A DNA stretch of 64,000 nucleotides from Ylistrum balloti (lineage: Eukaryota): positions 1,488,001 to 1,552,000 of the forward strand of contig NW_026782083.1 in the NCBI RefSeq assembly GCF_031769215.1, in the 5' to 3' direction. Made by a program: the position numbers and the translations under genes. A model generated the notes under the pieces. That model worked only from the letters and a program-made list of their open reading frames with translations, was not told the DNA's origin and did no database searches. The first letter of the stretch is position 1, and each line of letters begins with the position of its first letter. This document shows, one piece after another, positions 31,301-60,837 of this stretch.

Positions 31301-34300
31301 TTTTGATATATATGTTTAACCTATATATATATATATGTTTAACCAATATTTGACAGAATTTTTATATATATGTTTAACCTATATTTGACAGAATTTTTAT
31401 ATATATGTTTAACCTATATTTGACAGAAATTTGATATATATGTTTAACCTATATTTGACAGAATGTTGATGCCTGGGATCCAATTGATCAACATGAAGCA
31501 GCAACACAAACAGAAAAAGCTTTTAAGAAAAGTAAGCTTTAAGAAATAATTTCAGTTATATAGTAGACCCTAGTTACTCCAATAACAAGTATATTTTTAA
31601 CCCACCATCATCAAATTGTGGAATGCTCAAATGGTCCTTCATCGATGGTTTGATTAATGTTTGTTCTTATTCATTCTTGCTATCACTTTTTCATAGAAAT
31701 TTGGGGGTAGATCTCTGTCAAATTTGATAAATGAGTTCTGTAAGTCCCTAGTTGTGCAAGTTCAATTTTGTGACCAGCCAGAAAAATTTTAATTGCAAAA
31801 AGACTATAAATCAAACTTAAAGTGTCACACCATGTGTATGTTTTAACAATGGGAAGATGTTATGGGGAACCATGACTTAGTCTTTATTACTTTATGTGAT
31901 GAATTAAAACATGTTGAAAAGTAAGTTGTCAGAAACAATAGATTCAATTTATATTTACGTTATGGTATAGTGTAACCTCAAGTTCTACACATGATTAGAT
32001 TTTGATTGTGAATGAAAGAATGAAAGTGACGTTCGACTGTTTCAGGTGGTTCTGATGGATATGTATGTGTAAGTCCATCTAACCTCTTTTTTGTTTCTTT
32101 TCTAAAATTGAAAACCTTATTGCATTAAAACACTTTTCCAGTAGTTTTGGATCATGTTAAAATCATGTTGTCATTTTTTCAGGTAAAACCTTTAAAATAC
32201 CTGAATGTGTACAGGATGTCAATTCAAAGAAAAGAAAGAGAAAAGCACCATTGAAAAAACCAAAGCTTCAGCCCCTGTCCGAGTTTATCACAGAAACATG
32301 TGAGAACATTTAAATTTCAAATGAAGTTAAAATAAGTTGTATTTTCGTGAAATATTGATAATATGTGTTTAAACTCAAACTACTTTTGTAGAATAAAACA
32401 AGTTTTAGTGAAATTATAAAATATTCTTTAATTACTACTTTAATTAAGATGGTGAATTTTCCATTATTTTCTGCTTATTTCTTTGAACCTTTTGGTAAAT
32501 TTGAAATAGGTGTGCTAAAAATAAGATGGGATAATCTGGAAGTTTCAAATTTATCACTGTGAAAAATGAATTATTATTGTTATTGTTATGATTTGTAGTT
32601 TCACACAAAAGCAAGTTTCCAAAGAACCCAAGGAAAGTACCAGTTCTTGTTGAATTTGAGCAGCAGTACTGGATAGAATACAAGAGGAGACAACGGCTTC
32701 TGAGAGAACAGAGAAAATCTGTGGTAAATCAGTATTTCTGTCTTTTTCTTTATCTTTTATTTATTTATTTTATTTAGTTTTTTATGTTGTTATAAATAGA
32801 CATTACAAAAATATAAAATGATACATTATATCAAACAGTTTTAGCATAACCATGTTTACAAGGTCAGCTTTCTTTAATTATCATACAACATACAGTTTAA
32901 AACTCAAAGACGCCTATACAATAGTACATACCCTTTCACCTTCAATAACACATCCTCACACACCCTCACATCGCCCACACACCCTCACATCCCCCACACA
33001 CCCTCACATCCACACACACCCTCACATCCCCCACACATCCTCACATCCCCCACACACCCTCCACACACACACCACCTCCCTGTTCCCACACATCACATCC
33101 CCCACACACCCTCACATCCCCCACACACCCTCACAACCACACACACCCTCACATCCCCACACACACTCCTTGTTACACATACCCCATCTTTCATTCATTA
33201 CTATACATGTACATATATCAATGCTGGTTGCCCTCAAGTACATATAAATTTAACAAAGAAATGTTGGAGGTAATGAAATGCCTAAATAATATCCGATGTT
33301 TCTACTATACTATATCTCTGAATTTTAGTCATATATTGTTCACACTGTTGTATAAACTGACATATCATTACTGGAACATCTGTTAGGTACAGTTCTGGAT
33401 CTTTAATCCAAAGATCACAGCAAGGTCAGATCAATCAGATTATTGTTTTTCTAGTCTCTACACTAATGTTTAAGAAGACCAGCTATTTGATGGGTTTTCT
33501 TTAATGTAATGACTCCACAGGAGACATGAATCACTTTGCTATATTTAGTTGGTTGCTAAGCCTTTTTGCTTGTTCTCATAACAGATACTGATGTACAGGA
33601 AGTGTCTTTTCTTTGAGTAACAGTTAATGAAGGAAGTTTTCAGTCCAATTTATCTCCACTCTGTAATAAGGACACATATGATAAATAATAATTGGTGTAG
33701 TCAATAGACCTGATCTGAGAGTAATGCTGGGCAGTTTTAACTAGAGTTTTAATGAAGTTTTGTGTCGCACAGAGCCGTGAGGTGTTGGAAGAGGACCAGG
33801 AGGATGAGGAAGTCAACCAGAATGACCAGCCTGACAACATAGGTCAGTATCTAGAGGGTTGTAAAAATTATATCATACAACACAGGTTAGTGTCTATAGG
33901 GGTGTAAAAATCTTTTCAGACAACACAGGTCAGTATAGTGGTTTAAGAATCTCTTTGGACAACATTGGTCATTATTTATAGTTATGTTAAATCTTTCTCA
34001 GTTTGTTTGTGAGGATATTTGAATCTGACATTGGTGAGTACTTATTTAATTATAGGGGTGTTCAAATTTCACACCAGTTACTTCAGAACTTCATTAATTT
34101 AAACTTATATCTGTTACAGTAATTAATAAGCATTAAACACCACTTACCTAAAACTTACTTATTCCTTCCAAGTCAACTCACAGGTGTAATATTGACTTTT
34201 GATTTTAAGTAAGTGATTATAACACGGTAACTCAGAAGAGTAAAACAGAAATAATATGTTACAGATATAGGGATGGACAGGTTAGACGACGGTGATGACA

Positions 34301-36026
34301 TAGACAATGATGCTCCGTTGGTAGATGAAAATCTATTTAACGCTATTGAATCAGCCTTCTCAGATCAGCCTGTTTTTCCAGCTTCACCCAGCCGGTCAGG
34401 TAAAGTTCCAATTTCTTAGATAATCTTAAATGTCTCGCTATTAACACAATATCACTCAGCAAATCAGGTAAATTTATATGTTCTCTGGTAATCTAAAACA
34501 TTTTTACTATAAACACAACATTACACATCTTAGGTCAGTATATAAAATCCTTGTCCTTTGCCTTGTTACCAACTGATGTGGTCTTTACAGTGTTTTGAAA
34601 AGCTATGATTAATAAATTGTATCATTCTGTCATTGTTATTTCAGAATCAGGAGCGTTTAAAATCGGAGAAATTGTTACTGATTATGAGGAGCTTGTTAGA
34701 CAGCATGTGGTAAGTCATCATATCATCACCAACACAAAACACATCAACATGTCACTACTGGATACAAGTTGCAATATTTCCTAGAAATGGTGGGGGGGTA
34801 TTGTTGTCATCATTCTAGCAACTTCTTTAGAGATTGTGATGAAACTTGCTACAAAGATCAACTTCAACTAAAACTTAGAGGATTTTTTTGAAACTGTGTT
34901 CTAAGGTCACAGTTACTAATGACTAATTTGTCAAACATTGATACCTATATGAATGAGAGTGGAGTCATTCATGTGACCTATCTCACAGATATTTGGTTAA
35001 TGAAATTTTATCTTTTTGTTAATAGGAGCAGTACATGGCAAGTGCTCAGGAATACGCCCAGATAACAGAGCTGTCACAAAGAGTGGCTGAATGGGAAGAC
35101 AAGGTCATACCCAAACTAGAAGAGGAGGTTGGTATTCATATTGTTTCATGGGAATTTCAGTTTTACTATTCCAATAGAAAAGCTGTCTGGGTTTTCAGGA
35201 ATTCATTTCTGCTTTGTTAAAAGTGAGTTAAAACTGAGATATCCGGGAATGGTTTAGCTGAAATATCATGAGATTGTTAACCCAAGACATCAAGGAATAA
35301 TTAAGCTGAGATATTGAAGTTATTCCATTCCACTAAATGTAGTTTTTCACTTTCTTCACAGGAAACACACGAGCCTTTTGATATCAACAAGTATGGGACC
35401 AAGGTTTTAGATAATCTGACTAATGACAAGATTGTTCCATTTAAATGTGTTGCTGCCGGCAAGCCATCATTCGAAATATGTAGATTATTTCTGTCAACTT
35501 TGATGTTGGTAAGTGTTCATATTTGATTTGTTGTTTCAGTTTACTTTCAAAAGTTGGCGTTAAATGTCTGTGAAATTCAATAAAAGAAAGGATAGTTACA
35601 GAGATCAAATATGAAGGTCATTATTGACGTTTTAAAATGAAACACATTTTATCTCTGATAAAAATTGATTAAACTGATGATACAAATTATTGTGAATCAA
35701 TCAAATTGTTAATTTATAAATTAGATTTGCATCATGAAAATGTGATTCCAGTGAGCATCTGTACTAGATTTTGTTTACAGTAATACCTAATGTGAAATTC
35801 AGAGGAAAAAAACATTGAAATCATGTGTTTGTAACTCTACTCACATCAATCTTGAAATCAAATTCAATGTTGACTTTTATCTTTACAGGCAAACACAGAA
35901 AATGTGAGAATTGTGCAGAAGGGAAGTTTGGAAGAGGGAATAGACAAATTTGAATTGAAACTTTTATCTACTACTCGCATGTTTGAACAACTAGAGGAAT
36001 ACCAAGCACCATCTCTAGCTTCTTGA
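25398..36026 (+). CDS. NCAPH2: Condensin-2 complex subunit H2 (kleisin beta), 19 coding exons, 631 aa
   Basis: Exons 25398-25532, 26060-26161, 26358-26413, 26659-26734, 26870-26938, 27252-27331, 27713-27873, 28599-28673, 29494-29594, 29916-29987, 31462-31531, 32183-32299, 32599-32723, 33773-33842, 34265-34399, 34645-34709, 35026-35127, 35362-35508, 35889-36026. These sum to 1896 nt with consistent phases. Motifs: [87 protein letters not shown] at 36158. The boundaries of the low-complexity middle exons are less certain. Confidence 0.93.
28100..29300. repeat. Two degenerate low-complexity repeat tracts flanking NCAPH2 exon 8
   Basis: GTGAAATGTTAG-like units at 28100-28460 and TGTCTCTAGTTTAC-like units at 28760-29300. 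Confidence 0.8.
31300..31465 (+). repeat. 35-bp tandem repeat containing the NCAPH2 exon 11 splice acceptor
   Basis: TGTTTAACCTATATTTGACAG|AA, with AG ending at 31356, 31391, 31426 and 31461. Confidence 0.9.
32940..33185. repeat. CA/C-rich simple repeat
   Basis: CACACACCCTCACATCCC-type units. Confidence 0.9.
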
Positions 36027-41355: not shown

Positions 41356-42354
41356 TCATATAGATTTATCATAACTTTCTTCATCAGAACTCCAGGAACG
41401 TAGAGATAATGTTCCAGCGCCGGAATAATCTGGATGTCGTCTCGACTTCCCAGGAAATTCAATGGGTGATGGTTTCGTGTTGGCGAGAACATCCTCTTGT
41501 GTGAGATTGATATCAGAACCCTGTGAGCCAGCAGAACTTGCCAAACTACCATCACCCTTGGCAAAAAAGGCTCTTTGGATCTCCGAGTCAAGGAAACAGA
41601 AACACAGGGACCCAGCTAGACCGATCACACCCCAAGATGACACTACAATGAGGTCATGTGTTTTGTGTTCAAATTCACGAATTGAAATGGCAATTTCCGC
41701 AAGTAGTGAAACCACGATAAAACCAGTCACAAGATTATTTTTCTCTTTAATGTTAGGCACATGTCCCGACAGAATAAGAAGGGTTTCTGGACGTTCCCAG
41801 CACATATAGAAATAATTAGCACAGAGGAAAAACAATGCTCCCACAAGCAGGAATACATGATCCACAAATTCATAGATATTGAGAATGTGTGCTGTACCTC
41901 CTCGCCAGCACTCGTCAGTTTTGTAAAAGTCAGGAGAGCAAAAGGACACTCCATAAAAGAGAATAGGCATGACGGGAGCACACCAGTTGATTACACACAA
42001 GAAACTTGTGCATCTTCCTCCCATACCATCAGACTTTGTTTTGAGCACAGTATAGTAATATCCAGCGATAATGGCAATCCTGATCCAGGCTAAACAGGTG
42101 GTCACTTCAATACACAGGCGAAGAGTCCAGCACAGGACATTGTTGTCCTCTAGTGGAAAATTGTAGCAGATTTCAAAAATGAGACGGAAAAAGTATTGTA
42201 GTAATGTCCATACAAATATCATTTTCATCTGTTGATATCGAAATCCAATTAAGCGCCTGGAACACCTACACAAAATGGCCAAACTGACCATTTGTATAAA
42301 TGAAACCAGTATAAGGAAGACATAACTGACCACGCTATACCACTGAAGAATCAT
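41356..42354 (-). CDS. Intronless divergent 7TM receptor, class B (secretin-family)-like, 332 aa, lacking an extracellular hormone-binding domain
   Basis: Seven hydrophobic segments. TM4 INWCAP (cf. IGWGxP), TM3 Cys and ECL2 DECW, TM7-helix 8 GLAGSLCFCFLDSEIQRAF (cf. QGFFVxxxYCFLNxEVQ). The ATG is in a GCCATG context with an in-frame TAG 18 nt upstream. Confidence 0.75.
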   Translation of the reverse strand: MILQWYSVVSYVFLILVSFIQMVSLAILCRCSRRLIGFRYQQMKMIFVWTLLQYFFRLIFEICYNFPLEDNNVLCWTLRLCIEVTTCLAWIRIAIIAGYYYTVLKTKSDGMGGRCTSFLCVINWCAPVMPILFYGVSFCSPDFYKTDECWRGGTAHILNIYEFVDHVFLLVGALFFLCANYFYMCWERPETLLILSGHVPNIKEKNNLVTGFIVVSLLAEIAISIREFEHKTHDLIVVSSWGVIGLAGSLCFCFLDSEIQRAFFAKGDGSLASSAGSQGSDINLTQEDVLANTKPSPIEFPGKSRRHPDYSGAGTLSLRSWSSDEESYDKSI

Positions 42355-43645
42355 GGCTACAAGTAGTCGCTACAGATATCCCAGTTTGTAACTATTAATT
42401 AGGACGTTATGGTCTGACAGTCCAACACTTCCACAGTGTGGTACAGCAACAACGCTAACTTCTCTGCTGGGCTTGTATAACAGATGTATCTGGTTGATCC
42501 AGTGTACAACGAACGACATGCATATTTTATGAGTAAACAGAGAACAGCAGTACAGTTCTGTAATGTTGAGAAGTAGCCAGAATCAATATGTGTGGTATCA
42601 CTGCACTTGTCAACAGTAAACACCCTCCATCACGCCTCACTGACCCAGCTTGTACTGTTGAGTCGTATACATGTTCATGAAAAATTAATGCTGTTTTATG
42701 TCATCACATTGTCCCTGTACTTACAGTAGCTGTGACCATCTGAAGCTGACCGGAATAACGTCCGATACCACCTCCGATATAACATCTAGGAACCATACAT
42801 ATCATTCATTATCCCGTAGCGGTCTTAGACAGGATGCCGTGTGTGTGCTGGCATGTAGAATATTCCAGTGCCTGATTTTAGCATAATTGATGCTTATGAC
42901 GTCAAAAGCAGCCTATTAACTGTGTACGGGCAATTTTTACACCGGTGCCAACTCGCCCCGGATCAATAACTCGTGTCTTCGTAACGACTTGGCGTTACCA
43001 GCAATTTTTAAACATCGTCATGAACTGGTACCAAGACTATTCAGATCAGATACGTATTGTATCCTACGGGATTTTTCTGTGCCAGTTAAACGCGATACAT
43101 AAGCTCACGACTAGTCCAGTTCGTGCGTTATGACACCTAACTATACGGTTCCGGTGTTCACAGATTGTCGGATTATTCAGGGTCAGTATTTGAAACTGAA
43201 ATGGGTTTCGCTAATCAGGGATATTTTCACATTATATCTATGGACTAATTTTGTTTTCTCGTTATTTTTTGCCAAATATTGTTGATGACACGTGATACTT
43301 CTAAAATCAATGTAGATAATTGTACCTCTTGGCGCCCGTCATTATGAACTATGTAGATTTTACACTGACTACGGTTTCAGCTTTAGGGTTGAGTTCTCTC
43401 CGATTTATGTCCCATCATTTTAATATTGGGGACGTAGTGTTGTCCTCGGTTAGTGCTCAGTTACAATTTCTTGAGTTGTGACATATAACTTCCAAAACAA
43501 AATTAATAAGTAAAATGTTCATAAAACGGGAAGAACAATATTGGAGAGCCTTGACTGACTCCAGTGGGAATAACTAGGTGAAATACAATACAGAAGCTTC
43601 ATTTTCAGTTTATTTACCATAGCCTTCGAAGACAGAAACTGAACT

Positions 43646-44823
43646 TTCAGATTCTTTACATCGTAGATTCTGCAGGCAGAACTTTAATTTTCAGATTCTT
43701 TATAATAGATTCTGCAGACAGATCTTTAATTTTCAGATTCTTTACCATAGATTCTGCAGACAGAACTTTAATTTTCAGATTCCTTCCCATAGATTTTGCA
43801 GACAGCTTTTTAATTTTCAGATTCCTTCCCATACATTCTGCAGACAGAACTTTAATTTTCAGATTTCTTCCCATAGATTCTGCAGACAGAACTTTAATTT
43901 TCAGATTTCTTCCCATACATTCTGCAGACAGCTTTTTAATTTTCAGATTCCTTCCCATACATTCTGCAGACAGAACTTTAATTTTCAGATTTCTTCCCAT
44001 ACATTCTGCAGACAGAACTTTAATTTTCAGATTTCTTCCCATACATTCTGCAGACAGAACTTTAATTTTCAGATTCCTTCCCATACATTCTGCAGACAGA
44101 ACTTTAATTTTCAGATTTCTTCCCATACATTCTGCAGACAGAACTTTAATTTTCAGATTTCTTCCCATACATTCTGCAATCAGAACTTTAATTTTCAGAT
44201 TCTTTACCATAGATTCTGCAGACAGAACTTTAATTTTCAGATTTCTTCCCATACATTCTGCAGACAGAACTTTAATTTTCAGAATCTTTACCATAGATTC
44301 TGCCGACAGAACTTTAATTTTCAGATTTCTTCCCATAGATTTTGCAGACAGCTTTTTAATTTTCAGATTCCTTCCCATACATTCTGCAGACAGAACATTA
44401 ATTTTCAGATTCCTTCCCATACATTCTGCAGACAGAACTTTAATTTTCAGATTTCTTCCCATACATTCTGCAGACAGAACTTTAATTTTCAGATTTCTTC
44501 CCATACATTCTGCAGACAGAACTTTAATTTTCAGATTCTTTACCATAGATTCTGCAGACAGAACTTTAATTTTCAGATTTCTTCCCATACATTCTGCAGA
44601 CAGAACTTTAATTTTCAGAATCTTTACCATACATTCTGCAGACAGAACTTTAATTTTCAGATTTCTTCCCATACATTCTGCAGACAGAACTTTAATTTTC
44701 AGATTCTTTACCATAGATTCTGCCGACAGAACGTTAATTATCATATTCTTTACCATAGATTCTGCCGACAGAACTTTAATTTTCAGAATCTTTACCATAG
44801 ATTCTGCAGACAGAACTTTAATT
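43646..44823. repeat. 42-bp minisatellite, about 28 copies
   Basis: Unit TTTTCAGATTTCTTCCCATACATTCTGCAGACAGAACTTTAA. The minus frame reads (LKIKVLSAECMGRN)n. Confidence 0.95.
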
Positions 44824-45039
44824 TTATTTAATCATTTATTTGGTGATATCACTATAATTGTTAGGTGATGTCGGTTTATCATAAAGTGGCATCATAACAA
44901 CGAATGAGTTATAACCTGTTATCAATTATGAGATAAAGACTCCAAAAAACCATGCTCGACTGTCAATCAATTGTTTTTTTCAGTTGTGATCCGTACGTAG
45001 TGCGCTTCAAGATGACATAAAATTGTTGGAATGAATGAC

Positions 45040-48000
45040 TTAGTAGTAACATATCGGCCTCCGTCAGACCTCACTATTACTTAGTGTTAACCTATCGGCC
45101 TCCGTCGGACCTCACTGTTACTTAGTAGTAACATATCGGCCTCCGTCCAACCTCACTATTACTTAGTAGTAACATATCAGCCTCCGTCCAACCTCACTAT
45201 TACTTAGTAGTAACATATCGGCCTCCGTCCAACCTCACTATAACTTAGTATTAACATATCAGCCTCCGTCCAACCTCACTATTACTTAGTAGTAACATAT
45301 CAGCCTCCGTCCAACCTCACTATTACTTAGTAGTAACATATCGGCCTCCGTCCAACCTCACTATTACTTAGTAACATATCGGCCTCCGCCGGACCTCACT
45401 ATTACTTAGTTGTAACATATCGGCCTCCGTCGGACCTCACTATTACTTAGTAGTAACATATCAGCCTCCGTCCAACCTAACTATTACTTAGTAGTAACAT
45501 ATCGGCCTCCGTCGAACGTCACTGTTATTTAATATTAACATATCGACCTCCGTCGGACCTCACTATTACTTAGTAGTAACATATCAGCTTCCGTCCAACC
45601 TAACTATTACTTAGTAGTAATATATCGGCCTCCGTCCAACCTCACTATTACTTAGTAGTAACATATCAGCCTCCTTCAGACCTCACTATTACTTAGTAGT
45701 AACATATCAGTCTCCGTCCGACCCCACTGTTACTTTGTAGTAACATATCAGTCTCCGTCGGACCTCACTATTACTTAGTAACATATCGGCGTCCGTCCAA
45801 ACTCACTATTACTTAGTATTAACATATCAGCCTCCGTCGGACCTCACTATTACTTAGTAGTAACATATCAGCCTCCGTCCAACAGTATTAACATATCGGC
45901 CTCCGTCGGACCTCACTATTACTTAGTAGTAACATATCAGCCTCCGTCGGACCTCACTGTTACTTAGTATTAACATATCAGCCTCCGTCCAACCACATTG
46001 TTACTTAATATTAACATATCAGCCTCCGTCCAACCTCACTGTTACTAAGTATTAACATATCAGCCTCCGTCCAACCTCATTGTTACTTAATATTAACATA
46101 TCAGCCTCCGTCCAACCTCACTGTTACTTAGTAGTAACATATCAGCCTCCGTCCAACAGTATTAACATATCGGCCTCCGTCGGACCTCACTATTACTTAG
46201 TAGTAACTCACTGTTAACTTAGTAGTAACATATCTATTACTTAGTAACATATCCTCCGTCGGTCCTGTTTCTTAGTAGTAACATATCAGCCTCCGTCGGA
46301 CCTCACTATTACTTAGTAGTAACATATCGGTCTCCGTCCAACCTCACTATTACTTAGTATTAACATATCAGCCTCCGTCCAACAGTATTAACATATCGGC
46401 CTCCGTCGGACCTCACTATTACTTAGTAATATAGCATATCAGCCTCCGTCCAACCTCACTATTACTTAGTAGTAACATATCAGCCTCCGTCGGACCTCAC
46501 TGTTACTTAGTATTAACATATCAGCCTCCGTCCAACCACATTGTTACTTAATATTAACATATCAGCCTCCGTCCAATCCACTGTTACTTAGTATTAACAT
46601 ATACCTCACTGCCTCCGTCCAACCTAACATTGTCGGACTTCACTATTACTTAACACATATCAGCCTCCGTCCAACCTCACTATTACTTAGTAGTAACATA
46701 TCAGCCTCCGTCGGACCTCACTATTACTCACTGTTAGTAGTAACATATCGTATTAACATATCAGCCTCCGTCCAACTCACTGTTACTTAGTATTAACATA
46801 TCAGCCTCCGTCCAACCTCACTATTACTTAGTATTAACATATCAGCCTCCGTCCAACCTCACTGTTACTTAGTATTAACATATAGCCTATTAACATATCA
46901 GCCTCCGTCGGACCTCACTATTCCGCCTCCGGACCTCACTGTTCAGTATTAACATATCAGCCTCCGTCGGACCTCACTGTTACTTAGTAGTAACATATCG
47001 GCCTCCGTCCAACCTTACTATTACTTTGTATTAACATATCAGCCTCCGTCGGACCTCACTATTACTTAGTAGTAACATATCGGCCTCCGTCCAACCTCAC
47101 TATTACTTAGTGTTAACATATCAGCCTCCGTCGGACCTCACTGTTACTTAGTAGTAACATATCAGCCTCCGTCCAACCTCACTGTTACGTAGTAGTAACA
47201 TATCAGCCTCCGTCCAACCTCACTATTACTTAGTATTAACATATCAGCCTCCGTCCAACCTCACTATTACTTAGTAGTAACATATCCGACTCCGTCGGAC
47301 CTCACTATTACTTAGTAGTAACATATCCGCCTCCGTCGGACCTCACTGTTTCTTAGTATTAACATTACTCCGTCCAACCTCACTGTTACTTAGTTTTAAC
47401 ATATCAGCCTCCGTCGGACCTCACTATTACTTAGTAGTAACATATCAGCCTCCTATTCGGACCTCACTGTTACTTAGTATTAACATATAGCCTCCGTCCA
47501 ACCTCACTATTACTTAGTAGTAACAGCCTCCGTACCTCACTATTACTTAGTATTAACATATCAGCCTCCGTCGGACCTCACTATTACTTAGTAGTAACAT
47601 ATCAGCCTCCGTCCAACCTCACTGTTACTTAGTATTAACATATCAGTAACCTCGGCCTCCCAACCTCACTGTTACTTAGTAGTAACATATCAATACCTCA
47701 TTGTTACTTAATATTAACATATCAGCCTCCGTCCAACCTCACTGTTACTTAGTAGTAACATATCAGTCTCCGTCGGACCTCACTATTACTTAGTAGTAAC
47801 ATATCGGCGTCCGTCCAAACTCACTATTACTTAGTATTAACATATCAGTCTCCGTCGGACCTCACTATTTCTTAGTAGTAACATCGGCCTCCGTCGGACC
47901 TCACTGTTTCTTAGTAGTAACATATCAGCCTCCGTCGGACCTCACTATTACTTAGTAGTAACATATCGGTCTCCGTCCAACCTCACTATTACTTAGTGTT

Positions 48001-48597
48001 AACATATCAGCCTCCGTCCAACAGTATTAACATATCGGCCTCCGTCGGACCTCACTATTACTTAGTAGTAACATATCAGCCTCCGTCCAACCTCACTATT
48101 ACTTAGTATTAACATATCAGCCTCCGTCGGACCTCACTGTTACTTAGTATTAACATATCAGCCTCCGTCCAATCCACTGTTACTTAGTATTAACATACCA
48201 GCCTCCGTCCAACCTCATTGTTACTTAATATTAACATATCAGCCTCCGTCCAACCTCACTTTTACTTAGTAGTAACATATCGGCGTCCGTCCAAACTCAC
48301 TATTACTTAGTATTAACATATCAGTCTCCGTCGGACCTCACTATTACTTAGTAGTAACATATCGGCCTCCGTCGGACCTCACTGTTTCTTAGTAGTAACA
48401 TATCAGCCTCCGTCGGACCTCACTATTACTTAGTAGTAACATATCGGTCTCCGTCCAACCTCACTATTACTAAGTATTAACATATCAGCCTCCGTCCGAT
48501 CTCACTATTACTTAGTAGTAACATATCGGCCTCCGTCGGACCTCACTATTACTTAGTAGTAACATATCAGCCTCCGTCCAACCTCACTATTACTAAA
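45040..48597. repeat. 41-bp satellite array, about 3.5 kb (roughly 85 monomers)
   Basis: Unit TAACATATC(A/G)GCCTCCGTC(CA/GG)ACCTCACT(A/G)TTACTTAGTA(G/T). The central part (46200-47700) has scrambled monomers. Confidence 0.97.
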
Positions 48598-49614
48598 TCA
48601 CTTTCTAAGTCCCCTGCCGGTGTAACCGGAGGGAACTATATTGTTTGTCATCGTCGTCTGACAATTCGGATTGTTGCTAGATGATGACGTAAGTAAGGCA
48701 TGGCCGATCAGGTTGAAACTTGAGACAATGTTAGGATACTAGAAAACCTAGTGTGGGATTGTGTTTTGGGACAAAAGATCTACAAGGAATTGTCAGCAGG
48801 ATGTGTGCTTGCAAAGCTTGCTTAAACTTTGTTTTAGTAGTGACACACAAGCCTCCAAAGGCTCTCACTATTTTCACTTTTATTAAGTAGTAACATACCA
48901 GCAATTCAAATGTCCAGCTATTCCGGAATCTGTTCAGTTGTCAAGACTTTCCATTAGAATTTTACAAAATACTCACAAGAGAATAGCACGTTTGAATATG
49001 ATTTATTATTAGATACATTAGAGCTGAACTTTTATCCGTCCATTACTCTTCAGCAGGGTAAGGGCCTGAAATGTTGAAACCTAAGAGGCGGCTGAGTTAA
49101 AAAAAATTGATTGGTCGAAAGAAATGGCAAAATCTAGACTCGGAGTACACGAGCTCCATACTTCACTAACATCATGATTTTCAAATATCGGATTATTTCA
49201 AACGAACTTTGAACGTAGCATGAATACTGTTTATTTGGTTTGGAATTCCAAGCTACTATATTTTTTAAACTTGATGACATTTCTTCTTTACACTACCGGT
49301 CTGGATGGCATTTAAGAGTCTCAATGATTCAATAAGTGCCGGTGGCCTTATTCCTGGAACTACCGTTCTATATTTATAAATGAATTAAAGGTGACGACGT
49401 GCTTTATTTAGTATATAATTATTTCAGTTTTATTTTAAGATAATTTATTATTTAGATATTGTCATGACCATTTCCTACACAAGGCCAGTTATTGGTGTAT
49501 AATGAACCCTGTTGTAACAGTAAGAGGTGTTCTCGGAGAATACGGAGTGTCTCGTTATCCTTTGTTAACTACACTTTGATGAAAGTTTGATCAACTTGTC
49601 GCTACAAACCCAAT

Positions 49615-49715
49615 GGTCTCACTGTAGGAGGAAACCGGATTACCCCGAGAAACCCATGTGTCGGGAAGGTGGTTTTGTTCCTAATCACATTTGAATGTGG
49701 AATTGAACTCTATTC
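49615..49715 (-). mobile_element. Second V-domain-like SINE remnant
   Basis: Plus-strand GGAGGAAACCGGATTACCCCGAGAAACCCATG followed by GGAATTGAACTC (reverse B-box), similar to 52390-52420. A more decayed copy lies at about 2965-3000. Confidence 0.55.
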
Positions 49716-50331
49716 CTTCATTATTACATTGTGATCAGGGAAAGCACAATCTGCAGACGTCAATCTACATAGAAGAATGTTTTAAGGGAATGCTTTTCTT
49801 GAGATGAATCCTCGGCTAGAATTGTGGATTAAATACTTGGTGTAGGACTTAAACTAGCAAATCACATTGCTATCATAGGCTAACTCATGACGTTTAACAA
49901 GCTATATATTAGAAAACAATTGAACGATCCTATTAAAATGCCGTTTAAGTAAGGACTGATGACCTGGAACTATCGTGTTATTTTATAAAAGAAAACAAGA
50001 TTACGAAATGTTATATTTAGAATTTCAGTTACATTATAAGACTATTTTAGATTGACATGACAAGGCTATCGGTGTATATATGTAAATCAACCATATGGCA
50101 CTATATTGATCTATGTATACTGTTCAACAGCACTTCCTTGTGTTCAACACTGTGTAAATCGAATTTGCCACCATTTCAAACACTGAGAAACTCGTAAACT
50201 ATATCTTTGATATTTTTGAGTACCATGTTCAGCGAGGAAATGTATTTGGTGTTCGTACACGTGTGTTGTCAGTCTAACCAAAGTTTGTGAAAGTGAAGAA
50301 AAACGAGAAATATCTTAGATGTCAACTTACA

Positions 50332-50367
50332 ATGGAGCGTGAAACTCGGGTATATACAATCAAACAG
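50332..50367 (+). CDS. Candidate first coding exon for the mini-PPP1R15 (MERETRVYTIKQ)
   Basis: acaATGG context, 12 codons ending AAA CAG|gtactt in phase 0. Splicing to 52132 gives KQVTF, which fits the RVxF consensus. The donor is only moderate, and a similar string at about 50751 suggests repeat origin. Confidence 0.35.
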
Positions 50368-52131
50368 GTACTTATAATACACTTATCGGGTACTTGAACT
50401 TCAAACTGTTTTAATTTCTCTCTTTTTTTTTCGTTCTGAACGGCCGACATGTTTTTTCTTGTTTATCGACTAACAGATACTTTCTCAAAACACAACGTCT
50501 GACTCCAAGGACTCCTATCACTTCCGTTTAAGACTTGTTTGTATCTTTGTTCAGATTTTGTCTTACGGAATCTGAAGTTCTGGATTTCACTTAGAACTAT
50601 TACACTTCAGAAATTTCTGCTTGTTCCAGCTCCTTTCCACACGCATTGATTTTGTTGGTAATTACAATAATTCATTACTAACCGAACTAATTGTCCCTTG
50701 TTAAAACTTTTGTCCGGAGCTTAACTTTGCTTTCATTTTAATCTAGAAAAATGAAACTCGGTGTATACATTGGCCATGCTTAAACATTGTGCAGTGTACA
50801 CAATTCCGAACACGCATCTTCTTAATTACAGAGTTATTACCATTTGCTAAAGTATCGTGTCCGGAATATAACTTTTCTTTTATTTAAATCTACCCCTTAA
50901 ATACAGAATTATAGCGGTTTGTTAAGGTTTTGCGTTACATAAAGTTGTTTCGGGGAACATTCATAGGTTTCATGGTACTCTTGTCTTTATTCTGCCAGAA
51001 AAAAACGTCCAACGTCATAGAGATTACATGACCAAGAGATGTAGTCAAGATGGACCAGTGGCATGTCGCTATGAACGGTTTTTACTTTCGTTAAACATAC
51101 TCTTCCAACGTCACAGAGATTTACGTGAATTGTTAGCGTGCTGGGATGTCCGTTAGATGACATTGACCCACTTTTAAAGTGCACAAAGGTTAAATTTATC
51201 GAAATTTTCTAACAATATTGATGTTTAAAGTTGTAAAACCCTTACGTGTGAATGCACGATCAGTGTTAAAAAGGGTCGACGGAATACCAGGATACTAGGG
51301 ATAATCTGGTGTACTCAACTGTGTTACCTCCCTTGACACCTGTCCACATATAACCCTGGCTATTTATTGCGAAAAAAAAAAAAAAAAAAAAAACAGAAAA
51401 AAGTATTTCTTTACCGTTTTGTTATTACTTTACATTCTGAACACATTCTTTTTGTTTTCTTGTATACATTTAGACATCGTCATTTTCTGTTAAACTATGT
51501 AATTTACATGTTGTCCAAATTCAAGGACACTGGTCGCAATATCTTTCCCAGGTGACTTCCATAGATATATGTGATATATGCATGTAGTATGGTTTTCATG
51601 TTATGATAAATGCCACAGCTTTACCGACAAACACAATATTGCGAAGTAGAATATGGTAGAATTGGCCTGCAAACTCTGATGCATTAAGAACCACTGTATG
51701 TGCCATAATAAGACAGTCTAATATTGTTGTCTTATGTTGATTATAAGTTGATTTTTAACTTTCTGAATCAGTCACTGGTAGCCCACAATGCTGACGTCAT
51801 AATGGTTACGCCCTGGATGGTATATACTGTATTATGAAGTTAACAGACAAAAGGAAACAGTAGTCCTTCCCTATTGACTATGGTCTTCAGTTAGATTTAG
51901 TACAATGCTTTGTATGCCTACTACTCATCGACCAATTCGTTCAATACATCATCCATTTCTTGTAGTGACAAGAGGTCAACTGAACTCGATGTGTTTACAA
52001 GACGGTATAAACATCTAAAACAAGGAAGAGAAACATGCATTGGTAATAAATGAAGAGTACATATAAGTAAATTACAAAAAAAATATTGCAAGGAGAATAC
52101 CTTACTTTTATTCCAAAATTATTTGTTGTAG

Positions 52132-52356
52132 GTGACTTTTGCAGAAGGAGAAAAGTTATGCATTGTCCACGAGTTGGAGGATGAGGACAGGAAAGGACAC
52201 TGGGAAGAAGTAGGCCGTGATCGGGATCGATTTAAACGACGAATCGATAAAGTGGAGAATATATTGAGGCCTGTGTTATCGCCAGAAAGAAGAAACATAA
52301 TTTATCAAAGTATTTCACAACGAATCCAACGGGAGACCGATTCACATAATATTTAA
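52132..52356 (+). CDS. Inverted paralogous copy of the PPP1R15 terminal exon (PP1/eIF2alpha-binding module), intact, 74 codons plus stop
   Basis: tttgttgtag|GTG ACT TTT uses the same phase-0 acceptor position. VTFAEGEKLCIVHELEDEDRKGHWEEVGRDRDRFKRRIDKVENILRPVLSPERRNIIY matches the minus-strand exon at 43 of the first 58 residues, with no stops or indels. AATAAA at about 52737. Confidence 0.8.
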   Translation: MTFAEGEKLCIVHELEDEDRKGHWEEVGRDRDRFKRRIDKVENILRPVLSPERRNIIYQSISQRIQRETDSHNI

Positions 52357-52384
52357 TGTTAGTCATTAAAACGCGAAGGGTCCT

Positions 52385-52545
52385 GCTGTTGGAGAAAACC
52401 GGAGTATCCCGAGAAACCCACGTGGTCGGACAATGGATCTTTTGGTATTCGTTCATGGAATCGAACCCAAATAGGTGGCTTTGTGACTTCAGTCTACACA
52501 GGCGCCCTTCAATGCCAGTGCCCCGCACGCTAAACTTTTGATAGC
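52385..52545 (-). mobile_element. tRNA-derived SINE with a V-domain-like core, antisense in the 3' region of the mini-PPP1R15 exon
   Basis: Minus strand shows B-box GGGTTCGATTCC then GTGGGTTTCTCGGGATACTCCGGTTTTCTCC (cf. V-SINE GTGGGTTTCCTCCGGGTGCTCCGGTTTCC). Confidence 0.65.
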
Positions 52546-55500
52546 CAAAAGAATGATGATAACACAGCTTAAAGTATGATTTTTGTATCATATTTAGAAT
52601 ACTGACAGTCGATTCTTTTACGACCTCTGTTTTCTTCTGTAGATTAAACATTGATTGTAAGCCCAACGCGATATCAAGTAGGAAATCCCAATGGCAAGAT
52701 GCTCGTTCATATAAAGTTACTGGCGGGAAAAATTCAATAAATGTCAAAGGTAATCAATTATATTTATGTATGGTTCTTCGCGAGGAGTTTATACCACTAC
52801 TAACACCTATATATGTATATTAGTACAGGAACCAAATATGGCGTGGAAATACATTTCTGAATCGATGCCACTACCTGTTCACACCATTAGAGCCACAGAA
52901 TCTACAGGTTCAGTGAGCTATGAACTAATCTCCCATGTGATTCAACAAGTTCTCTCGGAGTTTCTCGAAACTCTAGGGGTTATGATCGCTTTCGCTCTCT
53001 GCACCCCAGGAACATTCCATTGCAAAATGGAAGGTTCCCTGCGTGACATGTTATGGATGAGACAAGAAGACTACTACATCAAACGAATCTCAAGGTCGTA
53101 AAACGATATATTGCGTTGATTTCCAAATTTCTGAAACTGCCATGCTAAATAAAAAACCGAACAAGTTGACGATGACATTTGTTGAAAATGCTTATTGCGG
53201 TTTTTAGTTACTTTTTAAAATACATAAATATTTATCATTAATTCGCGCTACTCGAGTCAATTCAAGATTTGTAATTCCGTAAATTAACTTTTTATTTTGA
53301 AAAAAAAATGAGTAAGATTTTAATGATATCGACTTGAAATGGCAACAAATTTTGAAATAAGTTAAAATTGTGCTTATTATGTCGTCAGTCTGACGCCCCT
53401 TAAAACAACTCGTCTCAATGACACTGCAGCCCAAGTTACAGAGAATGGACCTGAACTATGTTGGGATGATGTACTACTAGGTTTGCTCAAATGAATTACG
53501 TTTATGTACATTCAATATCAGTGCTATTAAATATCTTAAAACCTCGTAACAAATTACTTTCAATAACTAAGAGACCAATATTGGTCTGAAACATCCTAGA
53601 AGATACCAGTTTTGTTCAAACGATTGTCCTCCACCCAATCTCAAAGTCACATAATTCAAATGCGTTAGACTTTTAAGCAACCTTTTTTTAATAACAAAGG
53701 GAAGAAAAGTACTGATATAAGGCCTGTGACTTGTTGGGATGAAGGACTACCAATTTTGACTTCGAATGACCTTGACCAAAAAACGCATTGAAGCGTATTA
53801 TCCCGGTCCGAATCATTCTGAACTTCAGCCGATTTTTTTTTTTATATATATATTGACCGTTATAAAAAAAAAGTCGATAGAATTCGGACTAGTATGATAC
53901 TTCTTTCTTTGGAAAAAATCTCGCAATGTTTGGAAAATGTGATGTTGACATGTTTTCAGAAACAATTGTTAAGATGAATTTGACGTTGACCACTTCGTGA
54001 TCTGAATGGCAATTGGTTTACTAGTATATACGGATGTTTATCTCCCTTACCTGGACCAGATCTACCTTGTCCGCTCAAAAGCCGCATTAGATGTAAAATC
54101 TGTTAAATAAAACGATTTACTACACAGTCCACGAAATACCTATCACTATCAATGTTTGCCTCTGCTTGTGTCCATTTTGTTCACGTCTACAGGTATATCG
54201 TACCATTGCATATGCGTGTCTTTTAAACTTTTTAACACCCACCAACCTGACTAACATCTTTATTCCTGGAACTATCATACTACACATATTTATATCTGAA
54301 CCTAAAGATTACGACGTGCTATATTTAAAGGTACTTTCAGTTCCTTGTGCATCAATGTTGTGAATTCCGTTAGGCCCAGTGTTATTGAAAGCAGAGCACT
54401 TCAGCAATCAGAATGGTTATACATTGAACCACACTATCTAAAATCAGGGAACATATAGATTCTTAGATGACAGATGATGTTTTTGTGGATTTTCAGAATT
54501 ATAGCAAATTATATATATATATATATACTAGGGTAAAATCTAGTTTCATTTCGGCTCTGGATATGTACTATGCCCAACTATTTTTTCTTTTTTTTTCAGC
54601 ATTAATTAACCACACCCATAGTTTTCATGCCAAAGCAGTTTTGTTAATTACACCGGGTGTATTAATCTGATCTTGATTGAACACACACTAATAAATTATC
54701 ATACCTCAGACAATTGATTTTCAAGATTGTGTGTCAAAATCAAGGTCACCATTCATATTTTCTAAAAATCATTTAAGTGTCATGTAGCGGTGTTATTTAT
54801 GAGGATTTTGATCTTCCTTGCACACTTACAAATGGCTAAAGAAATCTGAAATGAATCTGTGCCATCCTACCCAAAGAAACAGATCCACATTTTTACATAT
54901 GCTATCACCAACAAAAACAGGTACAATAGTTGAAGTTTAAATCTTTTATTTATTTTAAAATATTGTATTGATTGAGTACCAGTACACAGCATTTGAATGA
55001 AATCTTACTAGTAACAATTTCAAAAATGATTTAAAATCACAGGTTATTATCAACCCCAGGAAATTAGGATTTCATATATGCAAGACATAAAACACACTGG
55101 TAACTAAATAAGAAAGGGGATTTATTGGATAGAGTTCAGCATGAATTTAAGTTTCAATCCCAAAGGTAATTACATGTTCCATATAGACCAAGAAGATAAC
55201 CTGTAGTTCCTTTGTGTCTGTATATTTCAGTAACTGAAATGCTTCTGACATGATATCTTGGTGTCATGTAATTGTTATATAACTTATTAAGTATATTCAG
55301 CTTTTGATTGGTTAGAATAAATGCTACTTTAGAATCTATAATGGTGTAGTTAAAAATAAAATTAAGAGATTTTCATCCCCTTTGTTAATAGGTAAAACAT
55401 TTCCAAGACTTTCCTGACAACCTGCAAAATTAAACTATTTCCTGTTAAAACAGAAACAGGCTCTTAATCTCTCAAGATTCACAAGATCTAACCACTTATG

Positions 55501-56050: not shown

Positions 56051-58481
56051 CTAATGATCATTCACAAGATGGTATCCCTCCAATTCTGTTTTAAAATATC
56101 TATCATAAATAATATCTCTCCTCTCTGTCGATAATACAGGCTTTAATATTTCCTCTACTTCAGCAATCCGTCGTTGAAATCGTTCCCGATCACGAACAAA
56201 TTCCTCCCAGTGTCCTTTCCTATCCTCGTCCTCCACATCATACACTGTACATAACTTGTCTCCTTCCGCAAAGGTTACCTGCAAAAAGTCCAGAATCAAT
56301 AAACAAATTGTCTTTTTTTAATGAATGTAATATTATGAAACATTCTTTTCTTGATTTTCTTTTTCTGCAAAGGTAAGTAAAGAGTTTACAACCAGTATTG
56401 GTCATTAAATATATATATTACAGATTTCTTTATCAAAACCAGCAGACTTTTTCTTATCTTCAAATCTCAAAAAAGTTCACTTTTGTTTGTGAATAGACAC
56501 ATCCATCCAAAATAAAGCAGGAAAGATAATATCAAAATACGTTTATGAGTTTGCTGAGAGTTTGTATTATTTATGAACTTTTTACCTTTGTTTTAGATTT
56601 TTCCTGATGACTAATGGAAAAGTTCATGTTCCATTTAATGTTGACATCAAGTATTTCTTGTTCTCTTTCTTCACTTTCAAAACTTTTGGTAGGACTAGGT
56701 TCCTGACAGGGAGCATTAGTGCAAGTTTTATTTACTGGACAAATCACATTAAGTTGTAATGGACAAGTAAAAAAGTCAAGTTCATGATCTTCATCTTCAC
56801 CATCACTATCAGAAAAATCATCACCACTGCTTTCTGAAAAACTATCAGATTCACTATCAAATGACACAAGAAAGGAATGTTGCTTCATTGAACTGGAAGG
56901 CGAGTTGTTTGAATCAATACCGAGTACAAAAGCAACAGTATTGGTAGGCCCCAGTTTTGTAGTTGCACTTGCTGTCTGAGAACTGTCTTTACAATTTTTT
57001 TCCTGGAAATGAGTTTTTTGGGAACCAATTCCTATATGATAGCTCTGGATTTCAGTTGGATCTTCTTTTCTAGCCTTTGAACGTCTTCGCTTCTTTGCTG
57101 ATGGACGACATGATCCTTTTTTATTATTGTTTCTGACCAAGAGTACAAACCTTCTTTCACAGTCTTTATCTAAATGTGATGGTTCACTTTTCTTTTCTGC
57201 ACAATTTGTACTTTGTTTTGAATCTGTAATTGTCATTTTAACACTATCACATTGATCATCTTTTGTGGCAGGCTGGTTTTCATTTGATTGAATTTCTAAG
57301 GAATTTCCACTGTCTTTGTCTTTATTCACTGAATCCTTTTCCTGAATCCTGCATGTTACATGAAACACTGTGTCATCTGGTTGGAAAATATCGCTTAAAA
57401 CAGATGTTTCTCGTTGTAAAGTTTTGTTGTTGACACCAGACGAGTCAGCAGATGGTTCCGAGTCCAAAGAGAGAGTCCTAACCCTAAAACCAATTCGCTG
57501 AGGAATATCTGACCCATCCAACTCCTCTGATTGACCACATTCAAACCAATCCACAATTTGCACTGACGCAGATTTTTGTCCATTGCTGCCTTTGTCATTT
57601 TCTTTGTCTGTGGTGGTAGGGACTTCAGACTGATCATGCTTTTCCACTTTAACATGCAAGTCTTCATGTAATTTTTCCTGATTTGGCATTGCACATTTAA
57701 TGTTTATCACAGGTTTTTGAGTTTCTTTAACATGATCATTGACTTCTTTGGAATGTCTCAAAGTATGACTAGAACTATCACTTTTATGAGAAAGTTCTGA
57801 TTTACTTTCTATTTTGTCACAATGGACTTGGCAATCATCTCGCCAACTTTTTTCTTGTGACGATTTTCTCCAATTAGTACAATCACTAGGGACTCTATTG
57901 GGCAGAAATGAATTTCTTGGACTGCAGTTGGGCCTATGGCCATCATAATGCTGACGTCTTGGAGAAGCTCTATATGAGTATCGCTGTCCAAGGTGATTAC
58001 CTGTCATTGCTGGGTGGAATCCATTTTTCTGATACTGAAAGTTTTTGAAATCAGGATTATAAAAGTGAGTTGATTTTCTTATATCTGAAAAGGCACAACT
58101 ATTAGGTCGGGATGATGCTTTCCTATAACAGCTCCAATGTGGAGCAGAGCCCCATTGTGAAGATTTATTGCGTTGATTCATAGTTCTTTTATGTTCTATC
58201 TGATTCAACAGAAAATCACTATCCATATTCATTGGCATAACGTTCGATGTACTTCTGCAATCCATGAACCCTTTATTGGTTACTGGTTCCATTCGTCCGT
58301 GTAATTTCAATGCTGAGTCAATTAGGGTACCCATGTCCGATATGTATCGGTCAGTCGAACAACTGTCTGATGTAATTTCACCTGTACTATCTAACCGCAA
58401 AAACGGTTGAGTTACGTGACCTTTTTCAGGTGCGGGGTGGTTTTTGCCCTTACACCGCCATCTTGTCCCATATGGATTCAT
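56051..58481 (-). CDS. PPP1R15B: Protein phosphatase 1 regulatory subunit 15 (GADD34/CReP family), 707 aa, two exons (58481-56586, 56278-56051)
   Basis: The 632-codon low-complexity exon 1 has an acidic PEST-like tract (SDSFSESSGDDFSDSDGEDED) and ends ACA AAG|gtaaaa. Exon 2 starts tttttgcag|GTA ACC TTT, creating the RVxF motif KVTF followed by DEDRKGHWEEFVRDRERFQRRI, the eIF2alpha-binding motif. This closely matches CReP (KKVTF...DEDRKGPWEEFARD). A versus B orthology cannot be resolved, and the start codon is uncertain. Confidence 0.88.
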
Positions 58482-58490
58482 AACACAACG

Positions 58491-58860
58491 CTATTTAGTC
58501 ATCCATCCTGTTTCAACGGCTTGATATACGTTGATAATAAACATGTTGTACATAGGAAGAATAACAAAGTCATACATAGAAACACTTTCACACATGGTAG
58601 ATACAAAGTTATGAAAGTTCCACTTGTGTGTATCGTCGAGCGCGGGACTTGTCCTAAAACCTTGTTGAATATACTCACTCAGATCAAGAAATCCGCTATT
58701 CAAAACACTCTTACAACTGTATGACTTCGTTGAATATGTGGATGATGTTCCTCTGTTCACTTCCGAATTCATCTTCGTAAAATATAACTTCAGTATTCTC
58801 TGGTTACGACAGTAAATATGACATACTTGTTCTTTTACTCATGTTGTGATTAAGGTTCAT
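58491..58860 (-). promoter_or_regulatory. uORF cluster in the PPP1R15 leader
   Basis: uORF 58860-58804 (MNLNHNMSKRTSMSYLLS*); 93-aa ORF 58772-58491 in frame with the main ATG and stopping 9 nt before it; micro-uORFs MDD* (58506-58495) and MTK* (58502-58491). Assumes the TSS lies near 58890 (TATATA at 58922-58917). Confidence 0.55.
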
Positions 58861-60837
58861 GTTTATTCTAAAAATAGTATCTTCCCGGAAGTTCGAGAAT
58901 CTGCGTTATCTCGCACTATATACATACGCGTAACAAATAATCCACCAGTAAAATAACCAGTGTTTCGTCAAATGACCAGTCAGACAAGAATATGGTTTAT
59001 AACTTCATCATCAATATGATGTTAATATAATTTTAAAAATTCTGCTAATCGTAGACATTTTTTTTTATTATTTTCGCAAAAGGAAAACGCATTAATTTCA
59101 ACTTGACGTTTTGCTAAGTTTAGATTATATGACCAAGGTTAAGGACGTATGCTTCGCATTGCATCAGATAGAAGGTAGACAACTTGTGTAATTACATAAG
59201 GTTTTGCCAAAAGGAAAAATAATTTAACTATCTAGACTGCATGTTTAGTTTAATGTAACTAGATCTTTAATGTTAATAACATGATTTAAAAAAAAATCAA
59301 GAATCCTGTGAAAGAAAAACCGGCTTGTAATTCACTGGATGAAGGATTGCATTTCTTTCTTCCATTGATCCATTAATAAAACGGTAAGGCCCAAGTTCTA
59401 TCTCCAAGTTGCGGATATCTTTAATTAACCATAGTTTAAGTGATCACACAAATTTAACAAATATTATGTCGTCATCCATTGTGAAAATCATTCTTCAGAT
59501 CTGTTAAATTTAACATTCATTAGAACGGAGGAAGATTGCAACCTGATTAATTTAGTATTCTTTGGCTAATTTTTGTAACGTATACAACTATAATTTCGTC
59601 ATATCTATGTTGTTATTGTAGGTCATCAAATCTCACACGTAATTGTAATAATAAAGTTGAATTGAAAAACTAACGTACATGATATGGGTCTTAGTCTTGG
59701 CAGGCGCTTTTTAAATGTCATTAGTATGAGGCGCGAATCTAAAGTTAGTGAGAAATCCTTAACAAGGCAGTGAAGCGCATCAAATTATCATAAGAAAGTT
59801 ACACAACGTGTATGATTTGTTGCAAAGGCTTAAATACGACATATTCCGTAGCTCAATTAGAACACGCTAGCATGTACAATATTAATCTTTAGCGGAGATC
59901 CGATTCATTGAGATTTTAAGAAAAAGAAAACACATGACATGCTACCAACGACTCTCTTTTCGATGCCGAACGAACATATATGTACGAAAATTAGACGAAA
60001 CATCGGGTCACAAATTATTGATAGCAAAATTAAGATTTGTACTAAAATGATACACACATTGATATCACAAGTCTGAGATAATTATGAAGTCAGAAATTTA
60101 TTATATAAAAGGGCAGAATTGCGGTGAATATTTAGGACGCACTTTCGCAGAAATTTCTGACGAAATTCTTTGGCTATCAGTACAGTGCGCACGCAAATGA
60201 CATCGATGACGGCGGGAAATATTATTAATTCCAAATATGAAATATTTTTAACAAAAAAAAAAAAAAAAAACCCACGCACACACAACTACAAACTGATAGA
60301 ATACACATGCACAAGGACACGGGACCAGATATGATTTTTGATTAGTAAATTGCCTCTAGGAGGAGGTGAGGATGGCTGGGCTGTAAATTTAAAAGAATAC
60401 CACTGTTGTTTGGGAGAAAGGATGTGAACATTTTATAGGACGAGTAAGAAATCCGATTTTGATGAACTTCTTTTTCTTATTTTTCAGCACATGCGTATGA
60501 ATTTTGTCTGCTTGATTGTCTCGTTTTCACTACTCGGAATCAGGGACGTCTAATTGTAATACAGCTTATATAAGTAATTTATTTAAAACGAGATATTTTG
60601 AATGTTTAAGAAGCGACGTCACTGTATGAAATTATAACACTTAAGAGAAATTGGTCAATATATTTCGTCGTTTCAAATAAAAAAAAAAGCTAATTATAAA
60701 ACATAATAGATTAATACTTCTAGATTGCTTGTTAAATGTTTGTGTGTGTGTTCGGTGCAAATAATAATCATAATGAGTAAATAATGGACGCAGGCAAAAC
60801 AAATGCCTCTATATCCATAACTTTAGGTGTAATAACT

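Follow-up and report, generated by a model that had tools for sequence, protein, structure and literature searches.

PPP1R15A/GADD34, PPP1R15B/CReP (PF10488) and Drosophila dPPP1R15 share a core of ~60-70 residues, and the same core is encoded by a duplicated exon in the scallop Ylistrum balloti, which we describe here. The exon lies beside a full-length PPP1R15 gene in a window of 64,000 nt (assembly GCF_031769215.1, contig NW_026782083.1, positions 1,488,001 to 1,552,000), to which all coordinates below refer. Mammals, like Ylistrum, have two PPP1R15 genes per genome, but both mammalian paralogs exceed 600 residues whereas the Ylistrum duplicate would comprise the core only; Drosophila has the single gene dPPP1R15. 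Vertebrate GADD34 and CReP possess a long N-terminal region with a membrane helix and eIF2-binding segments, whereas the duplicate retains ~100 nt of exon 1. The last three residues of its actin helix, unlike those of GADD34 and CReP, are rewritten by a frameshift. One cited abstract sets the large mammalian PPP1R15 proteins against viral and invertebrate ones.

Core-only adaptors are known from viruses (the 71-residue DP71L of African swine fever virus (ASFV), the γ34.5 core of herpes simplex virus, homologues in insect and other large DNA viruses) and are similar in size to the product predicted for the duplicate; the KHVRF motif of DP71L has the same K-x-V-x-F layout as the KQVTF predicted here. 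Unlike these adaptors, the duplicate is host-encoded, was copied from a neighbouring host gene and keeps the host intron position. DP71L is reported to form a PP1-eIF2α-actin complex (10.1101/2025.02.28.640897). The engineered fragments PPP1R15A(539-614) and PPP1R15B(631-700) cover the equivalent span but are laboratory constructs, not natural genes; they are reported to bind PP1 and repress an integrated stress response (ISR) reporter in cells (PMC4394352). A core-only PPP1R15 ancestor has already been proposed (10.1101/2023.12.15.571226). Judging from sequence comparison, we lean towards the view that the Ylistrum duplicate is a living gene for a core-only PP1/actin/eIF2α adaptor with a predicted length of 86 residues.

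The full-length gene consists of two exons on the minus strand, and its spliced 707-aa product is identical to XP_060068189.1 (Ylistrum balloti). The last exon scores 43.5 bits against PF10488 (curated cut-off 26.1).

56586..58481, minus strand: long coding exon 1 of the full PPP1R15 gene, 632 codons
56279..56585, minus strand: its intron, 307 nt, phase 0, cutting the RVxF motif between Lys and Val
56051..56278, minus strand: its last exon, 75 codons, with the PF10488 match
52132..52356, plus strand: duplicated last exon with the PP1c_bdg core (PF10488), 74 open codons, codons 1-59 free of indels
50274..50367, plus strand: remnant of the 3' end of ancestral exon 1, recognized by homology to the full gene; probably a 5' leader plus a short coding part

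The duplicate exon is preceded directly by a TAG acceptor in phase 0, ends with a stop codon at 52356 and passes the PF10488 cut-off of 26.1 with 33.1 bits. It is inverted relative to the last exon of the full gene, tail to tail with it at a distance of 3,694 nt, in agreement with the 3.7 kb given in a preliminary description of this locus. The two core exons are identical at 43 of the first 58 residues, and 16 of those 43 codons differ silently; the position and phase of the acceptor and all these counts, as first given, were reproduced. At the nucleotide level the copies differ at 37 of 174 positions, with a synonymous divergence (dS) near 1. Since the exon contains no Met and an in-frame TAG stands immediately upstream, any product needs a spliced first exon. 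The exon had been called uninterrupted, which is true of its 74-codon open frame; one nucleotide is deleted at codon 60 (about 52310), which takes the tail out of the ancestral frame and creates a new one, and the 58 compared residues stop just short of this shift. In the shifted frame one can still read the ancestral Tyr-Phe pair of the tail, which the full gene also has and to which hydrophobic pairs correspond in three other scallops. A genome search with the core exon found two copies and no third (two matches among the three candidates scored).

The duplicate had been described as a copy of the last exon only, and this has to be corrected. Self-BLAST within the window paired 50274-50343 with 56692-56623, in the terminal part of the full gene's exon 1 (81%, E 2.5e-8), and in a genome-wide search with 49700-50400 the same exon-1 end was the only other match (E 2.7e-6). 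The alignment of the remnant extends to the GT at 50368, which is the ancestral donor of exon 1. Thus the duplication is partial, inverted and tandem, with the exon-1 end, donor, acceptor and last exon all copied; no similarity between the introns or 3' untranslated regions of the two copies was found by alignment within the window. The remnant represents the last ~100 nt of ancestral exon 1. Read in the ancestral frame, it is disrupted by three or more frameshifting indels (+1 near 50288, +2 at 50313-50317 and a net -13 before the donor) and contains stops at 50288 and 50294. Pieces of exon 1 upstream of its last 120 nt matched 48600-50400 at shuffle level in 19 of 20 cases, and two exon-1 protein queries of the genome found the full gene only. 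Together with the genome-wide remnant search, this bears out the earlier statement that no long exon-1 equivalent exists. Upstream of the duplicate, the place expected for a long exon 1 with its promoter is taken by two tandem repeat arrays (43582-44868 and 45035-48598).

We considered a viral origin of the duplicate and rejected it: the most similar sequence is the host exon next door (43/58), with which the duplicate has the intron position and the exon-1 end in common. The possibility that the second copy is a duplicated haplotype or a misjoin in the assembly is practically negligible and was refuted for this window by the divergence of the copies (37/174 nt, dS near 1) and by X1, an independent assembly of genomic contigs in which both PPP1R15 copies are present on separate contigs. 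The X1 contig over the duplicate (5,595 nt, a single contig) shows 65 differences in 4 kb and represents a second haplotype. It has no indel in the remnant or the duplicate exon; the ATG, donor and acceptor discussed below are unaltered and the frame is kept, so the frameshifts of the remnant and of codon 60 are common to two haplotypes. The X1 contigs proved to be genomic and are silent on expression; no splice joint of either gene appeared in them.

The core of the duplicate was held by purifying selection on its own branch, as had been argued from the pattern of silent and conservative changes. Between the duplicate and the full gene, the ratio of nonsynonymous to synonymous substitutions (dN/dS) over 58 codons is 0.13 (pS 0.56, pN 0.12; Fisher P 1e-7; bootstrap 0-0.29). 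When one branch was neutral, simulations gave a ratio of about 0.4 and reached 0.13 in 0.1-6% of runs across 12 settings (1.5-6% in the settings nearest the observed dS). Polarized against three scallop outgroups, 11 of the 15 core changes fall on the duplicate branch, none on the full-gene branch, and 4 are ambiguous. The changes avoid conserved columns: changed columns have a mean entropy of 3.04 vs 1.73 (0 of 20,000 random draws as extreme), and none of the 12 most conserved family columns is changed in the duplicate (P 0.017). Several replacements (His13, Lys35, Pro51) go toward common family residues. Of the 150 best matches, 149 supplied the 159 domain rows on which column conservation was measured; the remaining one was dropped as false.

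The residues known to make contacts were compared directly. Val1/Phe3, Arg20, Trp24, Phe34, Ile38 and Tyr58 of the duplicate correspond to V641/F643, R658, W662, F672, I676 and F696 of CReP, and the Arg equivalents of GADD34 R595 and R612 are kept. Every PP1- and actin-contact residue named in the papers is retained, including the DR-RF block. The best PDB match of the duplicate exon is ASFV DP71L (PDB 9NB9, E 1.4e-6); the match ends at the Arg54-equivalent position, five residues short of the end of DP71L. Codons 58-62 correspond to CReP F696-Q700 (GADD34 W616-R620), the C-terminal amphipathic actin helix. Position 62 is hydrophobic in 58% of 102 family rows, and the new tail of the duplicate is hydrophobic at 58, 61 and 65, with a helical moment of 1.89 vs 0.93.

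These residues bear on the suggestion that the short protein acts as a competitor, holding PP1 or actin while dephosphorylating eIF2α poorly and so prolonging the stress response. The alteration of the actin helix by the codon-60 frameshift would suit such a role, given that deletion of CReP F696-Q700 is reported to abolish actin stimulation of mammalian PPP1R15 (PMC4394352), as would the reported weaker activity of core enzymes on trimeric eIF2 compared with extended forms (10.1101/2023.12.15.571226). However, Trp24, Phe34, Arg37, Ile38, Arg54 and Tyr58 are all kept, which would be needless for a decoy; the new tail retains its hydrophobic positions and high helical moment; and DP71L, with which the match ends at the Arg54 position, is reported as a potent repressor (10.1101/2025.02.28.640897). 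Since the actin/substrate contacts are conserved along with those to PP1, a working adaptor is likelier than a decoy, and a pure competitor appears highly improbable.

The predicted splicing of the duplicate, with further features of the presumed transcript, is as follows.

50332..50367, plus strand: candidate coding first exon, 12 codons, led by ATG and ending with Lys-Gln at the GT; splicing predicted
50368..52131, plus strand: predicted intron, 1,764 nt, GT-AG, with both splice sites at ancestral positions
50319..50342, plus strand: out-of-frame upstream open reading frame (uORF), 7 codons, weak context, overlapping the candidate start
51792-51799: perfect CRE-like (cAMP response element) palindrome within the predicted intron, 340 nt before the acceptor
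52365 (ATTAAA), 52643 (ATTAAA) and 52736 (AATAAA), plus strand: possible poly(A) signals, by pattern match only

Region 43000-52060 contains eight candidates that run from an ATG to a phase-0 GT with a donor score of at least 4. The donor at 50368 ties for the top score, and it alone belongs to an exon homologous to exon 1; it also supplies a basic residue. The choice of 50332-50367 as the best first exon therefore stands, on stronger ground than was first given, as the exon ends at the ancestral donor. Its ATG spans ancestral Lys/Gln-Trp codons in a context of A at -3 and G at +4; the distance from ATG to donor is 49 nt (out of phase) in the full gene vs 36 nt (in phase) in the duplicate. The predicted splice yields K-Q-V-T-F, with Val and Phe from the exon and Lys from the candidate first exon. 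The Val/Phe part of the RVxF motif said to have been rebuilt is thus present in the exon, while the ATG and Lys result from reading ancestral sequence in another frame; the probability by chance is 0.15 for such an ATG open and in phase and 0.06 if a basic residue at -1 or -2 is also demanded. The core pattern was matched in 137 of the 150 best family matches; among these 137, the RVxF motif has a basic residue at -2 only in 18, at -1 in 73 and at neither position in 31, and lies out of reach in 15. The mini-gene had also been pictured as lacking a uORF leader, which is not supported: in the presumed leader the overlapping 7-codon uORF at 50319 is joined by seven further ATGs in 50000-50318, upstream of the candidate start.

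Selection on the core does not reveal its partner exon. The core exon could be alive and yet be spliced to another first exon, or be read through from an upstream gene, so that the 86-residue model would be wrong. This would be in line with the seven further ATG-GT candidates in 43000-52060, of which the one at 51248 likewise ends in a basic residue, and with the position of the CRE-like palindrome at 51792 inside the predicted intron. Against it, the remaining candidates lack exon-1 homology and no second exon 1 was found in the genome. As for readthrough, the C-terminal domain of NCAPH2, the nearest upstream plus-strand gene with a Pfam match, is already reached at 35 kb, and between this gene and the duplicate lie a minus-strand open reading frame (ORF) and the two tandem arrays. 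A partner exon of this kind is improbable, in our estimate. A fusion to an upstream gene was searched for among 86 ORFs and dropped; their Pfam matches were NCAPH2 (4), lipase maturation factor (2) and a single sub-threshold one.

Several observations weigh against a living 86-residue adaptor. An in-phase ATG with a suitable Lys could arise by chance at 0.06-0.15, which at most is suggestive of recruitment. The donor at 50368 lacks G at +5, as does that of the full gene. The codon-60 deletion has rewritten residues 60-62, so that Tyr58 and a hydrophobic residue at 61 are kept but Phe62 is lost. The branch of the duplicate is fast, at 0.45 changes per column vs 0-0.16 for scallop orthologues. 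CpG observed/expected ratios over the duplicate are 0.86-1.13 in six of seven 500-nt bins (50000-53499) and 0.48 in one, vs a depleted 0.0-0.76 over the body of the full gene; with methylation as the assumed link between CpG depletion and gene expression, the undepleted, intergenic-like composition fits silence or restricted expression. A word-based protein search revealed no short (40-130 aa) protein for the duplicate, whereas the full gene is annotated; this search is weak, as at 131-2000 aa it returned 11 candidates, scored none and missed the known 707-aa relative. An exact protein look-up of the duplicate exon alone found nothing and is uninformative for a spliced product. Three of our measures also carry a bias or a narrow base. 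The family rows were gathered with the duplicate exon as query, so their conservation is biased toward the duplicate, although the residues named in papers provide an independent check and are all kept (PMC10743859). The indel rate used below, about 9 per 65 substitutions, comes from one contig. Among the 40 of 95 X1 differences listed, which end at 52214, the exon shows a silent change at Glu16 and Gly28 replaced by Ala, the commonest family residue; any differences in codons 29-74 would be among the other 55.

Most of these points, namely the fast branch, the missing short protein, the CpG-rich composition, the chance-level start and the codon-60 tail frameshift, together with a remnant broken by frameshifts and stops, would suit a once-functional paralog that died recently and whose 12-codon exon would be no more than an open frame arisen by chance as the exon-1 end decayed. 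Death, however, would be confined to a short time. Across 58-83 target sites the core is undamaged by substitutions or indels, which limits any unselected period to at most 0.04-0.05 substitutions per site, or the last 7-10% of an assumed branch of 0.5. Within such a period 0.5-0.75 indels are expected in the remnant, but at least three are observed (P 0.02-0.04). Since the remnant frameshifts are unlikely to fit into so short a time, the copy probably functioned in truncated form, after losing the long exon 1, while they arose. In addition, frame and splice sites are kept in both haplotypes, and codons 1-59 are free of stops, indels and damaging changes, with none among the listed X1 differences either. 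Death of the duplicate after a period as a mini-gene is possible. As a whole, we consider a recently dead paralog unlikely, though less so than the other rival readings.

The remnant itself evolves unlike the core. Its differences from the full gene number 3, 3 and 2 at the three codon positions, as opposed to 8, 4 and 25 in the core (P 0.045); none of 10 shared codons has changed silently (P 0.02 against the core). This fits a non-coding stretch free of constraint in the old frame and perhaps renewed through gene conversion. In a tree of seven cores all three inner branches are unresolved. Both Ylistrum copies share the derived Ile56, which points to duplication, or the last conversion, within the Ylistrum lineage, a timing that rests on this one residue.

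The living-adaptor reading can be spelled out as a sequence of events. After a partial inverted duplication, exon 1 would have shrunk to a frameshifted stub while the core stayed under selection. A net 13-nt deletion would have brought a formerly out-of-frame ATG into phase with the donor, leaving a Lys two residues before Val-Thr-Phe in the K-x-V-x-F arrangement of DP71L. Splicing from the ancestral donor (50367 to 52132) would then yield the 86-residue core-only protein. The RVxF motif, the hydrophobic pair and Arg20 would bind PP1, and Trp24, Phe34, Arg37, Ile38, Arg54 and Tyr58 would make the contacts to actin and substrate. By joining PP1 and G-actin, the adaptor could cause dephosphorylation of eIF2α and a restart of protein synthesis, as the short viral mimics do. 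By analogy with mammalian core fragments, it may dampen the ISR under the duplicate's own promoter, probably with lower activity on trimeric eIF2 than the long form. The further proposals that its action is stress-independent and that the two genes form a switch are unsupported.

A truncated PPP1R15 next to a full-length one also appears in the protein records of another scallop. Mizuhopecten yessoensis has a truncated PPP1R15 annotated as 'Protein DP71L' (OWF43722.1, 111 aa; XP_021367213.1, 185 aa) in addition to the full-length protein (OWF43723.1; XP_021367206.1); the accession of the full-length model is consecutive to that of the truncated one, and the scaffold lengths of the two are equal (263,870). 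Like the Ylistrum duplicate, the truncated model consists only of the exon-1 end and core. Unlike the Ylistrum pair, the Mizuhopecten pair is identical at 148 of 150 residues and has its exon-1 end in frame, and it is known from protein records. The truncated model was rejected as an isoform of the full gene on the strength of its own accession and name and the two differing residues; it may stem from a recent independent duplication, from gene conversion or from an allelic assembly artefact. Full-length PPP1R15 genes were found in Argopecten, Mizuhopecten, a further scallop-like record and an oyster. No short copy surfaced in Argopecten or Pecten, in searches too insensitive to exclude one.

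Other family members include Pecten maximus XP_033753320.1, which lacks the core and ends at 605 aa in a seemingly shifted frame just before the exon-1 end, probably through an assembly indel. A PPP1R15-like protein of 570 aa contains four tandem segments similar to the helical half of the core. Among the 150 best family matches, 69 are no longer than 130 aa, viral proteins and fragments among them; ten short matches were looked up, of which one is viral by name, one has a generic name and eight have none. Comparison with the Atlas gave four sets at 0.90-0.92; in three of them PF10488 occurs in 29-41% of members. Recognition was below the bar, and this is a lead only.

The full-length gene shows some further features upstream of its coding region.

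58491..58772, minus strand: uORF of the full PPP1R15 gene, 93 codons, in frame with the main ORF, with a hydrophobic stretch

This uORF is terminated by a TAG four codons 5' of the main ATG. Its 19-residue hydropathy reaches 1.35, and the main full-length protein has no comparable stretch: no hydrophobic N-terminal segment was found in the first 200 residues of the scallop protein (best 19-residue hydropathy 0.16, vs 1.79 in a fish PPP1R15B). The description of the duplicate as a form without the endoplasmic reticulum anchor is therefore not supported, as the long protein shows no such segment to lose. The uORF could be regulatory, or could provide a membrane anchor through readthrough. An 8-mer at 59159-59166, ~680 nt upstream of the ATG, which we take to be ATF4/C-EBP-like and which may be due to chance, hints at GADD34-like induction.

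The window contains several other genes. Exons of a lipase maturation factor (18934-20244, minus strand) and of NCAPH2 (25365-35523, plus strand) lie head to head, and human LMF2 and NCAPH2 show the same pairing. A 1,074-codon open frame with LRR (leucine-rich repeat), Roc and COR domains (Roco family) is located at 12469-15693 on the plus strand. A Pfam search at E 1 gave no match for the 337-codon open frame at 41356-42369 on the minus strand, which has several hydrophobic segments; its product is possibly a receptor-like membrane protein. Beyond the duplicate, 172 nt (53693-53864) are missing from the X1 contig, and 52975-53110 and 53556-53796 match many contigs in the manner of dispersed repeats.

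While the biochemistry of the core is known, a natural pair of a long and a core-only host gene, side by side in a non-mammalian animal, would be new. A literature search (titles and abstract openings, with subscription papers outside its reach) found no duplicated or truncated PPP1R15 in molluscs, and within titles and abstract openings no animal genome with both a long and a core-only form. We put forward, tentatively and as somewhat doubtful, that in scallops a core-only PPP1R15 is split off from the full gene, either repeatedly or ancestrally, and that in Ylistrum it may have matured into a translated DP71L-like adaptor with a frame-recruited start, so that long and minimal subunits would be controlled separately. 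A recently dead paralog would be a lineage-specific curiosity. If the duplicate is alive, it would be a cellular re-run of the truncation carried out by viruses and would show plainly how partial duplication and frame recruitment can give rise to a mini-gene; it would also let one ask, in a natural setting, what is gained through the long N-terminal region and whether the last residues of the actin helix are needed.

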